DNA from: a virus
Taxonomy: Duplodnaviria; Heunggongvirae; Uroviricota; Caudoviricetes
Length of the DNA: 27,940 nt
Strand: one strand, 5' to 3'
IMG/VR virus record: IMGVR_UViG_2778261462_000004
Made by a program: the position numbers and the translations under genes. The stretch's first letter is position 1; every line of letters starts with the position of its first letter. The notes below the pieces were generated by a model. It was not told where the DNA came from. It saw only the letters and a list, made by a program, of their open reading frames with translations, and made no database searches. Positions 3,237 to 12,208 of the stretch are shown in pieces.

Positions 3237-3508
3237 GCATTCGTATCGAGATTGGCGAGCGCTATGTCGTCACAAGTGACCGTTTTCAGTTCATTTTGCA
3301 GGAGAAAAAGACCGCTGAAACAGGGAAGAATGCCGGTAAAGAGTGGCTGGATGTTGTCGGCTATTACCCCAAATTAAACCAGCTCGTTTCCGGTCTGATT
3401 CATCACGATATTTTGAGCGGTAGCGCTGTCTCTTTTGAGGAATTGAGCGCTCAGGTTGAGCTACTCGGTCAGCAGTGTTTAAGGGCTTTTGACACAAATG
3501 GCCGTTGA
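3233..3508 (+). CDS. early hypothetical protein (91 aa), position of P2 orf83
   Basis: ATGA overlap with the preceding stop; ORF directly precedes A. Confidence 0.55.
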   Translation: MSIRIEIGERYVVTSDRFQFILQEKKTAETGKNAGKEWLDVVGYYPKLNQLVSGLIHHDILSGSAVSFEELSAQVELLGQQCLRAFDTNGR

Positions 3509-5789
3509 AATTCGGGGGCGTTCTGCCCCTACACCGCCACCACCATTTGCAAAAAACACCGGCAAAGAGTTTGCCGGTGTTTACTCATGGAACGCGCCGC
3601 GTGAGGCTATTGGGCGTGAGAGACCCCTTACACGTGACGAGCTGCGTCAGGTGCAAGGGGTTTTATCTAAAATTGACCGCCTACCTTACTTTTTAAGTTC
3701 TCTGTTTACTTCGCGCTATGAATATATCAGGCGCAACAAAAGCCCTGTGCATGGGCTGTATTTCCTCAAGTCGACATTTCTGCGCCGGTTGTGGCCGCGC
3801 ATTGAGCGGGTTAATCAGCGTAACGAAATGAATACAGAGGCGTCGCTGCTGTTTCTTGCTGAAAGTGAGAATTACGCGCGCCTGCCGGGGATGAACGATA
3901 AAGAGCTGAAAAAATTTGCGTCTCGTATCGCCTCGCAGCTTTTCATCATGTACGAGGAGTTAAGCGACGCATGGGCTGAGGCGCACGGTGGCAAAGAGTC
4001 GCTTTTTACCGATGAGGCTCAGGCGCACCTGTACGGTCATGTTGCTGGCGCAGCTCGTGCTTTTAATGTTGCCCCGCTTTTCTGGAAGAAATACCGCAAA
4101 GGCCTGATGACAATCCGACAGGCATTTTCCGCCGTCGCTCGCCTGATTAACGATGAATGGTGGACTAACCAGCTTAAGGCGCAGCGCATGCGCTGGCATG
4201 AAGCGCTGCTGATTGCTGCAGGCGAGGTGAATAAAGACCGCTCGCCGTATGCCAGTAAAAACGCCATCCGTGATGTGCATGCACGCCGCCTGGCAAATCT
4301 TGAATACCTGAAATCCTGCGAGCTGGAAAACAAAGTTACCGGCGAACGTATCGACCTTATCAGCAAAGTGATGGGAAGTATTTCCAATCCTGAAATTCGC
4401 CGCATGGAGCTGATGAACACCATTGCGGGGATTGAGCGTTATGCCGCTGCTGAGGGTGATGTCGGTATGTTTATCACGCTGACTGCACCGTCGAAGTATC
4501 ACCCGACTCGTCAAGTCGGGAAGGGTAAAGATAAGACTGTACAGCTTAATCATAGCTGGAATGGTGAGGCTTACACCCCGAAGGATGCGCAGCGTTATCT
4601 TTGCCGTATCTGGAGCCTGATGCGTACCGCTTTCAAAGATAATGATTTGCAGGTTTACGGTATGCGCGTCGTCGAACCGCACCATGACGGGACGCCGCAC
4701 TGGCACATGATGCTGTTTTGCAAGCGCCAGCAACGCAAAGAAATCACCGAAATTATGCGTCGTTATGCTCTCAAAGAGGATGGCGACGAGCGCGGTGCTG
4801 CTCGCAACCGCTTTCAGGCTAAGCACCTGAACAAAGGCGGTGCGGCCGGGTACATCGCGAAATACATCGCCAAAAATATCGACGGTTACGCGTTAGATGG
4901 CGAGCTCGATAAAGATACCGGCAAACCGCTCAAAGATACCGCCGCCGCTGTTACTGCATGGGCGTCAACGTGGCGAATCCCTCAGTTTAAGCCGATTGGC
5001 CTGCCGACGATGGGCGCTTACCGTGAGCTGCGCAAGCTGCCTCGCGGGGTCAGTATTGCTGATGAGTTTGACGAGCGTGTCGAAGCAGCACGCGCCGCGG
5101 CTGATGGCGGTGATTTCGACCTGTATATCACTGCTCAGGGCGGCGCAAATGTCCCGCGCGACGGTCAGACCGTCAGGGTCGCCCGTAGCGTCAGTGATGA
5201 GGTTAACGACTACGAAGAAGATATCGAGAGGGTGGTCGGTATTTACGCGCCTCACCTCGGCGCGCGTCACGTTCACATTACCCGGTCATCAGAATGGCGC
5301 ATCGTTCCAAAGGTTTTGGCCGTTGAGCCTTTGACCTTAAAAAGCGGCATCGCCGCGCCTCGGAGTCCTGTCAATAACTGTGGAAAGCTCACCGGCGGTG
5401 ACGTTTCGGTTATGACCACTACACCGTCTGAGTATGCCGCAGCGGTGTTAAATCTTGTTGATGACGGGGTTATCGCATGGGATGACCCCGAAGTCGTGAC
5501 GGCGCTCAAGGGCGCACTAAAACACGACGCGCCGCAGCAAAATCGTCAGCAAAGAAGTGGAGAGCCATTAAAACAGCATGACGTTGCCCCATCAGGCAGG
5601 CTGACTAAATCCGAACGCGCGCAAATACCGCGCATCCGCTTTGACCTTGCGCAGCAAGGCATCACTCCGAAGCGCTGGGAGCTTGAGGCGCTGGCGCGTG
5701 GTGCGACCGTGACATACCACGGGCAGAAATTCACATATCCGGTCGCTGATGAGTGGCCGGGGTTTACTGGTATATCTGAATGGGGGTAA
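3498..5789 (+). CDS. A: rolling-circle replication initiator A (HUH endonuclease), 763 aa from ATG 3498
   Basis: HUH motif ..GTPHWHMMLF.. and double-tyrosine active-site motif ..AGYIAKYIAKN.. visible in the translation; N-terminus MAVEIRGR..AGVYSWNAPREAIGRERPLTRDE.. close to P2 gpA as recalled. Confidence 0.93.
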   Translation: MAVEIRGRSAPTPPPPFAKNTGKEFAGVYSWNAPREAIGRERPLTRDELRQVQGVLSKIDRLPYFLSSLFTSRYEYIRRNKSPVHGLYFLKSTFLRRLWPRIERVNQRNEMNTEASLLFLAESENYARLPGMNDKELKKFASRIASQLFIMYEELSDAWAEAHGGKESLFTDEAQAHLYGHVAGAARAFNVAPLFWKKYRKGLMTIRQAFSAVARLINDEWWTNQLKAQRMRWHEALLIAAGEVNKDRSPYASKNAIRDVHARRLANLEYLKSCELENKVTGERIDLISKVMGSISNPEIRRMELMNTIAGIERYAAAEGDVGMFITLTAPSKYHPTRQVGKGKDKTVQLNHSWNGEAYTPKDAQRYLCRIWSLMRTAFKDNDLQVYGMRVVEPHHDGTPHWHMMLFCKRQQRKEITEIMRRYALKEDGDERGAARNRFQAKHLNKGGAAGYIAKYIAKNIDGYALDGELDKDTGKPLKDTAAAVTAWASTWRIPQFKPIGLPTMGAYRELRKLPRGVSIADEFDERVEAARAAADGGDFDLYITAQGGANVPRDGQTVRVARSVSDEVNDYEEDIERVVGIYAPHLGARHVHITRSSEWRIVPKVLAVEPLTLKSGIAAPRSPVNNCGKLTGGDVSVMTTTPSEYAAAVLNLVDDGVIAWDDPEVVTALKGALKHDAPQQNRQQRSGEPLKQHDVAPSGRLTKSERAQIPRIRFDLAQQGITPKRWELEALARGATVTYHGQKFTYPVADEWPGFTGISEWG

Positions 5790-5806
5790 TTGTGAGAAAA
5801 ATCTGT

Positions 5807-5980
5807 GTGATTGTTGGGTGGATTGCTGGGCTGTCGCTTTTCTTTCTGCTTCTTGGTTGGGCGGGTGAGCAAGACCGTAAAGACTGTGAGGAACGGATAG
5901 CAACAGAGCTGAAAACCACGGCTGTTTTTATAAACAATAAGTGCATGGTGAAGGGGTATGGCCGCTTTGACGGGAGGTGA
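5807..5980 (+). CDS. small single-pass membrane protein (57 aa from GTG 5807; alternative starts ATG 5780 / GTG 5792)
   Basis: Hydrophobic stretch ICVIVGWIAGLSLFFLLLGW followed by a charged tail; GAGAAA 7 nt before GTG 5807; sits where P2 carries orf91/tin/old; followed by a terminator. Confidence 0.4.
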   Translation: MIVGWIAGLSLFFLLLGWAGEQDRKDCEERIATELKTTAVFINNKCMVKGYGRFDGR

Positions 5981-6277: not shown

Positions 6278-6296
6278 GGCGTGGCGGGGAAAGCAT
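6278..6296. other. cos cohesive-end site (GGCGTGGCGGGGAAAGCAT)
   Basis: 19-mer closely matching the 19-nt cohesive end I recall for P2/186-family phages (GGCG[A/T]GGCGGGGAAAGCA[C/T]); lies between the early region and portal Q, exactly where cos sits in P2. Confidence 0.6.
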
Positions 6297-11458: not shown

Positions 11459-12208
11459 ATGACGAGCCCCGCACAGCGTCACATGATGCGGGTCTCGGCC
11501 TCTCAAGCCGCGCAGCGGGAACAAGCCCCGCTGCGCCACGCAACCGCCTACGAGCAGATGCTGGTAAAGCTGGCCGATGACCGCCGCACGTTAAAAACCA
11601 TTCGTTCAAACGAACTGAAAGCCGCGAAAAAGCGCGAGCTGCTGCCGTTCTATGCGCCGTGGGTTGCCGGTGTGCTGGCTGATGGCCGTGGCGCACAGGA
11701 TGACATTCTGATGACCGTCATGCTGTGGCGTCTCGATGCCGGTGACGTTGCTGGCGCGCTGGAAATTGCCCCCTACGCGCTGAAATACGGCCTCACCTCA
11801 GACCATCGCCGTACCACGCCTTACATGCTGGTTGAGGAGGTGGCGCTTGCGGCACTACGCCTGCGCGATGCCGGTGAGCCTGTCGACCTCGCATTACTCC
11901 TGACCACCCTCAGCCTGACCGACGGTGCTGACGTTCCCGATATGGTGCGCGCCCGTCTGCATAAGGTGACCGGCCTGACCCTGCGCGATGCCGGTCAGAA
12001 CGCCGAGGCGCTGGCGCAGTTTCAGCGCGCGATGCAGCTCGACCGCAACGCCGGTGTGCGTAAAGAGATTGAGCGACTGGAGCGGGCATTGAAGCCAAAG
12101 CCTGAGGCAGCACCCCGTAAAACGACTAAACCGCGCACGCGCAAACCTGCCGCCAGACCGGCGGCAAAGCGCGGGCGTCCACCAAAGGCGGTAAAAACCG
12201 CCGGTTAA
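11459..12208 (+). CDS. M: terminase small subunit M (249 aa from ATG 11459)
   Basis: MTSPAQRHMMRVSA..NELKAAKKRELLPFYAPWV..GVLADGRGAQDD..MTVMLWRLD as recalled for P2 gpM; starts 4 nt after N stop; basic C-terminal tail. Confidence 0.88.
   Translation: MTSPAQRHMMRVSASQAAQREQAPLRHATAYEQMLVKLADDRRTLKTIRSNELKAAKKRELLPFYAPWVAGVLADGRGAQDDILMTVMLWRLDAGDVAGALEIAPYALKYGLTSDHRRTTPYMLVEEVALAALRLRDAGEPVDLALLLTTLSLTDGADVPDMVRARLHKVTGLTLRDAGQNAEALAQFQRAMQLDRNAGVRKEIERLERALKPKPEAAPRKTTKPRTRKPAARPAAKRGRPPKAVKTAG

Follow-up and report, generated by a model that had tools for sequence, protein, structure and literature searches.

Where does the origin lie in a P2-like prophage whose initiator gene is readily recognized but whose nick sequence could not be identified by eye? 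This question was raised by a 27,940-nucleotide (nt) stretch of viral DNA, IMG/VR virus record IMGVR_UViG_2778261462_000004 (the whole stretch is referred to below as the window), which carries gene A, encoding a rolling-circle initiator of 763 amino acids (aa), at positions 3498–5789 of the + strand. An initial annotation had expected the replication origin (ori) to lie within gene A, as it does in P2, and had offered 5355–5370 as a candidate for the nick region, graded as a weak guess. Comparison with the sequences of related phages indicated that the rolling-circle origin of this prophage is very probably 5344–5383 (+), within the last third of gene A at its 3' end.

The candidate 16-mer, GCGCCTCGGAGTCCTG, had a single exact occurrence in the window, at 5355–5370 (+), against a chance expectation of about 1e-5 for an exact 16-mer match in 27.9 kilobases (kb). 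In the RefSeq record of P2 (NC_001895), the rep_origin feature 'nick site at ori' occupies a single base, 29892, which is the G before the bar in CCTCG|GAGTCC (within ...GCCGCGCCTCGGAGTCCTGTCAATAAC...). The alignment of the window with P2 was gapless around the nick, with 59 identical nt at window 5337–5395 (TTAAAAAGCGG...CTCACCGG), and P2 base 29892 corresponded to G5362. The identity with the P2 site was observed directly. The rep_origin of phage 186 (U32222, base 28576), which was itself located by similarity with P2, is the first G of GAGT, one base further, and corresponded to G5363. Since the P2 and 186 marks bracket one bond, the predicted nick was placed between G5362 and G5363 on the + (coding) strand, inside codon R622 (CG|G), that is, at codon 622 of 763 in the C-terminal third of A. 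In phage fiAA91-ss, the annotated rep_origin is a 21-mer, GCGCCTCGGAGTCCTGTCAAT, described as 'located within gene A'; it had an exact match in the window and began at the same G as the candidate 16-mer. Both the P2 ori and its cleavage site have been reported to lie inside gene A and to be conserved in distant phages (PMC3986222). The expectation of an origin within gene A was thus borne out, and the candidate region both covered the base annotated as the P2 nick and overlapped the fiAA91-ss rep_origin, so that its low grading was mistaken; the alignment to the mapped P2 ori, which the initial annotation had named as a check, placed the nick that had escaped inspection by eye.

From the P2 alignment, the predicted nick would be preceded by a single-stranded spacer, GCCTCG (5357–5362, +), of which G5362 would carry the priming 3'-OH, and is followed by a conserved block, GGAGTCCTGTCAATAACTGTGG (5363–5383, +), which on account of its invariance and third-position identity is presumed to be the recognition sequence of the A protein. 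A covariance model of the ori, run against both strands of 94 sources (677 kb), matched each source exactly once, and its sole match in the window was at 5331–5386 (+). When near-matches were included, the 16-mer was found three times in the window against 0.28 expected, the additional copies lying at 5660–5675 (-) and 11996–12011 (-) with three and two mismatches, respectively. Neither was matched by the covariance model as a second nick site, and the copy at 5660–5675 was found in only one of 82 relatives; both are probably due to chance.

For the analysis of conservation, 80 close IMG/VR relatives and annotated phages were collected, and a codon-aware alignment was made of 82 distinct A genes whose products were 56–98% identical to that of the window. 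The longest invariant nucleotide run in these 82 genes was 30 nt, at window 5354–5383 (CGCGCCTCGGAGTCCTGTCAATAACTGTGG), and the second-longest in the 2.3-kb gene was 8 nt. Third-codon-position identity was 1.0 in the codons of the 30-nt run, compared with a gene mean of 0.63. Phages 186, K139, and SEN5 and Klebsiella phage 3LV2017, with approximately 32–37% protein identity, retained CTCGGAGTYCTGTCAATAACTGT at the homologous place, where it formed a conserved island in a poorly conserved C-terminal region, and a variant, CTTGGACTnnTGTCAATAACTGT, was present in HP2, one Burkholderia phage, and one Klebsiella phage. The exact motif was found at 80 loci in IMG/VR, in every case within a gpA-like gene and on its coding strand. 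The reading frame was the usual one in 77 loci and a different one in three (L115, L168, and L170), which translate the motif as ...AAAPPLGVLSITVRG... (PPLGVLSITV) where the others have ...AAPRSSVNNCT...; in L115 the motif lies at about position 995 of the reverse-complemented locus. Among the loci with the variant motif, 25 of 79 carried it outside a long gpA-like open reading frame (ORF), and whenever a rep gene could be identified on the fragment as well, the variant motif was located downstream of it (approximately 560 nt in L276). The frame-shifted copies and those external to rep indicated that the object under selection is the DNA; the frame-shifted loci constitute a natural experiment in which the DNA was conserved and the peptide was not.

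Immediately 5' of the predicted nick, a small hairpin was supported by both the centroid fold and covariation, with the 5' arm GCGGC at 5344–5348, the loop ATC at 5349–5351, and the 3' arm GCCGC at 5352–5356 (+). The centroid DNA fold contained no other element, and the distance from the hairpin to the nick was 6 nt in the window and 3–6 nt in the relatives. When the hairpin was defined as a stem of 5 or more perfectly matched base pairs (bp) that encloses a loop of 3–6 nt and ends 3–6 nt before the nick, it was present in 63 of the 73 different upstream sequences; the corresponding rates were 1.7% at all other positions of the same A genes, 2.7% in GC-matched windows, and 2.4% in shuffled sequences; many of the sequences that failed this definition bore imperfect or long hairpins ending approximately 4 nt before the nick. 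Among the relatives there were 17 distinct 5' arms, each with its exact complement on the 3' side, including GCGGT, GCGCC, GGCCGC, GGCGGC, AGGGCGC (186), AGGACGC, GGAGCC, GGAATC, GCGCAC (HP2), GGACGAC, and GGAAAAC. In the P2-like class, which was selected by the downstream sequence and hence independently of pairing, the five inner pairs were practically always paired, and one of them was G-C in 13 sequences, C-G in 10, and unpaired in none. The hairpin was also retained in the three frame-shifted copies.

Covariation of the stem was measured in a structure-aware alignment of 50 sequences, a usable version of which was obtained from a covariance model without the 5' flank. In this alignment, 79% of the stem cells were paired, compared with 66.8 ± 1.3% in shuffled alignments, and the covariation score was 0.179, compared with 0.070 ± 0.011; neither value was reached in any of 500 shuffles, and controls slid along the alignment scored at most 0.031. 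Five of the seven stem pairs had changed on both sides. An earlier ungapped alignment from a covariance model had mixed two stem registers, with 67% of cells paired and weaker figures. The internal non-Watson-Crick pairs of the stem included four G.T or T.G and no A.C, a weak hint, from too few pairs to decide, that folding takes place on the + strand. We found no description of the covariation of the P2-ori hairpin or of its frame independence in the searchable literature, the old primary P2 papers being outside our reach, and a full-text literature search for the nick sequence gave no match.

The initiator that would act on this site is intact. The gene A ORF runs from an ATG at 3498 to a TAA at 5787–5789 and overlaps the upstream orf83 homologue by 11 nt, as in P2; the protein begins with MAVEIRG, parallel to MAVKASG of P2. 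Its product matched the Pfam family PF05840 (Phage_GPA) over profile positions 1–321 of 321 (E = 1.2e-115; 386.5 bits, with a cutoff of 31.4) and showed 83% full-length identity with P2 gpA, and the gene as a whole was 82% identical to the P2 A gene in DNA. We therefore assigned it as an HUH endonuclease of the Phage_GPA family. The HUH and YxxxY motifs noted by the initial annotation were both found in alignment with P2 residues: the metal-binding motif H401-W402-H403 (CAC TGG CAC) at 4698–4706 (+) and the active-site tyrosine pair Y452-I-A-K-Y456 at 4851–4865 (+), the latter aligned with Y450 and Y454 of P2. The two tyrosines of motif C have been reported to belong to the active site of P2 A (PMC3986222). 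No sequence-related protein was detected among solved structures.

Nicking, the strand that is cut, the direction of synthesis, and replication activity can be proposed by homology with P2. In such a mechanism, the A protein made from the same DNA would cut the + strand between G5362 and G5363, and Y452 or Y456, aided by a metal ion held by H401 and H403, would form a covalent bond with the 5' phosphate of G5363. The 3'-OH of G5362 would then serve host enzymes as the primer for the leading strand, which would be extended rightward past the end of gene A and cos, 916 nt away. After one round, the second tyrosine would cleave the regenerated site, and the first would rejoin the displaced strand. 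The invariant stretch of approximately 20 nt 3' of the nick is likely to be the sequence-specific recognition element, whereas the 5-bp GC hairpin would be read as a shape and not as a sequence. The hairpin may position the nick site or expose it as single-stranded DNA (ssDNA), either for initiation on supercoiled DNA, or for termination on the displaced strand, or for both.

Several points weigh against assigning this site, with its hairpin, as a working origin. A large structure at the ori, considered as a candidate, was rejected, because a 90-nt fold was no better than those of shuffled sequences (z = 0.28). The hairpin itself is small, its 5-bp stem being on the short side for a cruciform to extrude spontaneously. 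In fiAA91-ss, the annotated 21-nt origin starts inside the 3' arm and omits most of the hairpin, which suggests that the structure is dispensable for cutting short ssDNA, such as single-stranded oligonucleotides in vitro. The exact bond and the strand of the predicted nick were taken from the GenBank entries of P2 and 186, which each mark one base, and from what Liu and Haggard-Ljungquist reportedly described in 1994. Moreover, the prophage may be silent or may have defects in other regions, and the same hairpin would form in the messenger RNA (mRNA) of A.

The last of these points bears on the possibility that the hairpin, and perhaps the whole block, works in the A mRNA, for example through stability, ribosome pausing, or the coupling of cis-action, and not as a DNA origin. 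The hairpin lies on the coding strand and is thus present in the transcript, and the occurrence of G.T and T.G pairs without A.C fits a hairpin on the + strand, although RNA and DNA would do so alike. However, the distance between the hairpin and the nick stayed within 3–6 nt in all lineages, the hairpin was retained where the ori lies downstream of and outside the rep ORF, and there was neither a T-run nor another RNA signal 3' of the hairpin. HUH enzymes such as relaxases and the IS200/IS605 transposases usually have a hairpin beside their cleavage site, which also counts against a function in RNA, and we consider such a function quite improbable. Conservation of the block for the peptide A-P-R-S-P-V-N-N-C that it encodes, with the true origin elsewhere, would account for the persistence of PRSxVNNC even in relatives with approximately 30–36% identity. 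It would leave unexplained why all synonymous sites in the block were invariant in the 82 genes even though Pro, Arg, Ser, and Val have four to six codons each, why three loci read the same DNA as PPLGVLSITV, and why the nick-core variant TTG|GACTnnTGTCAATAACTG is intergenic in small elements, some 560 nt downstream of rep; the P2 nick is, in addition, annotated at exactly this site. The frame-shifted and intergenic copies effectively refuted conservation for the peptide, which now has hardly any likelihood.

More plausible than either of these, but still unlikely, is that the site is a P2-type ori by descent in a relic prophage and has fallen out of use. The closest genomes at the species level were chromosomal prophages of Kosakonia and other Enterobacteriaceae, as a relic would be. 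On the other hand, the A ORF is full length with every catalytic residue present, the ori is identical to that of P2, and the window still has cos, the portal gene, and the early genes that precede A; the closest IMG/VR copies (97–98% protein identity) are, moreover, within the 82-gene set in which the 30-nt block was invariant. We therefore favor the assignment of 5344–5383 as the origin of the prophage.

This origin was indistinguishable from that of P2 itself: the two share the 59-nt block, its location on the coding strand, its position in the gene (codon ~620 of ~760), and the HUH and Tyr-x3-Tyr residues, and no difference was found in the origin. The difference lies in the host lineage, which is another enterobacterial one (the closest species genomes, from Kosakonia, showed 89–93% A-protein identity), and in the region downstream of A, where the window has only a 66-aa ORF before cos and lacks orf91, tin, and old. 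Phage 186, in contrast, has an A protein with approximately 36% identity. Its nick core, TCTCG|GAGTTCTGTCAATAACTGT, is located at the homologous place in the A gene and is preceded by a hairpin, but there is one substitution (C to T) in the 3' block, and its hairpin has a 7-bp stem (AGGGCGC/GCGCCCT) and a 4-nt loop and is followed by a 4-nt spacer, compared with 5 bp, 3 nt, and 6 nt in the window. The origins of HP1/HP2-type phages and of Burkholderia P2-like phages showed the same architecture within the rep gene, with the same ...TGTCAATAACTGT tail, but their nick core is CTTG|GACTnnTG whereas that of the window type is CTCG|GAGTCCTG; judged from the sequences, the CTTG-type core probably marks a different initiator specificity.

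More distant relationships extended to origins of the CTXphi type. RstA of CTXphi is a Rep homologous to the HUH domain of gpA, as indicated by an rstA match, and inverted repeats surround the RstA cleavage site in the CTXphi ori(+) (PMC4439123). In small viral contigs among the 25 loci with the variant motif outside a long gpA-like ORF (L276–L355; L276, L281, L286, L298, L305, L328, and others), the Rep matched only the HUH domain of gpA (residues ~208–514), and the core CTTG|GACTTGTGTCAATAACTGT lay outside rep, preceded by a long hairpin ending 4 nt before the nick; these contigs are probably filamentous-phage-like or satellite elements. Origins of the CTXphi type and of the small elements thus differ from that of the window in being intergenic, not within rep, and in having a much longer hairpin (up to 27 bp).

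A similar arrangement is found in other HUH families. At the nic site of relaxase oriTs and at the ends recognized by the IS200/IS605 transposase TnpA, a single-stranded cleavage site is found a few nt away from a hairpin whose sequence varies, as in the window ori, although relaxases and TnpA belong to families other than that of gpA and serve transfer and transposition. The gene A protein of phiX174 is, like the A protein of the window, a two-tyrosine HUH initiator with its origin in its own gene, and it acts in cis; to our knowledge, however, the 30-nt origin of phiX174 has been described without a hairpin, unlike that of the window. In PM2 (NC_000867; L083), a homologue of the P2 ori, CCTTGGAGCACTGAAAATAACTGT, was matched by the covariance model at 2716–2771 of L083 (E = 1.4e-4), in the corresponding C-terminal part of gene XII, whereas the 'cleavage site' in the GenBank entry lies approximately 1.2 kb upstream (1489/1490 of L083, 2253/2254 of the record). 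One of the two sites may be wrong, or two sites may exist.

The gene order of the window is that of a P2-like prophage, with integrase and repressor genes at the left end followed by homologues of B and orf80–83, gene A, and cos, and with the portal and terminase genes after cos on the opposite strand. The B homologue was assigned by where it lies and by its size; no function is attached to its PHROG family. The cos site, GGCGTGGCGGGGAAAGCAT, at 6278–6296 (+), had two mismatches with the left cohesive end of P2 (cosL), GGCGAGGCGGGGAAAGCAC. It is flanked by gene A on one side and by the portal gene on the other, with 916 nt separating it from the ori nick upstream, which indicated that the window is a prophage or a circularly permuted genome. 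The 66-aa ORF at 5780–5980 (+), the ATG of which is inside ...TGAATGGGGGTAA, overlaps the stop codon of A and sits where P2 has orf91, tin, and old; its N-terminal half is hydrophobic, and it matched phrog_14089, to which no function is assigned.

Other repeats were observed around the origin. Two inverted repeats were located just 3' of the ori block. One, at 5383–5407, has 12-nt arms, 83% complementary and 1 nt apart, and is probably not conserved, since P2 differs there at several positions. The other, at 5465–5490, has adjacent 13-nt arms that were 85% complementary. Approximately 105 nt upstream of the ori, CGGTATTTACGCGCCTCACCTCGG at 5237–5260 repeats parts of the ori sequence CGCGCCTCGG (direct repeats D1 and D2); two-copy short repeats of this kind often arise by chance.

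As an origin, the element of this window is an ordinary one, that is, the known P2 kind in a new prophage. Its identification turns an origin that had been expected but not located into an annotation at the level of single bases, with the predicted nick at 5362|5363 and the core at 5344–5383, and the combination of motif and hairpin model finds the ori of P2-like prophages automatically, as its single match per locus in the 94 sources indicated. Only tentatively, we suggest a wider arrangement, one not yet formulated for P2, in which the whole gpA/RstA family shares a modular ori consisting of a hairpin of free sequence, a spacer of 3–6 nt, the nick, and an invariant block of approximately 20 nt; the hairpin might then be required on supercoiled DNA or on displaced ssDNA even though short oligonucleotides would be cut without it. 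If this is true, the layout of the ori in the coding region of P2-like phages would dictate the local protein sequence, and the frame-shifted copies argue for this direction and not for the reverse. The compensatory upkeep of the hairpin and the independence of the site from the reading frame are of modest interest for the biology of HUH endonucleases and of overlapping codes.

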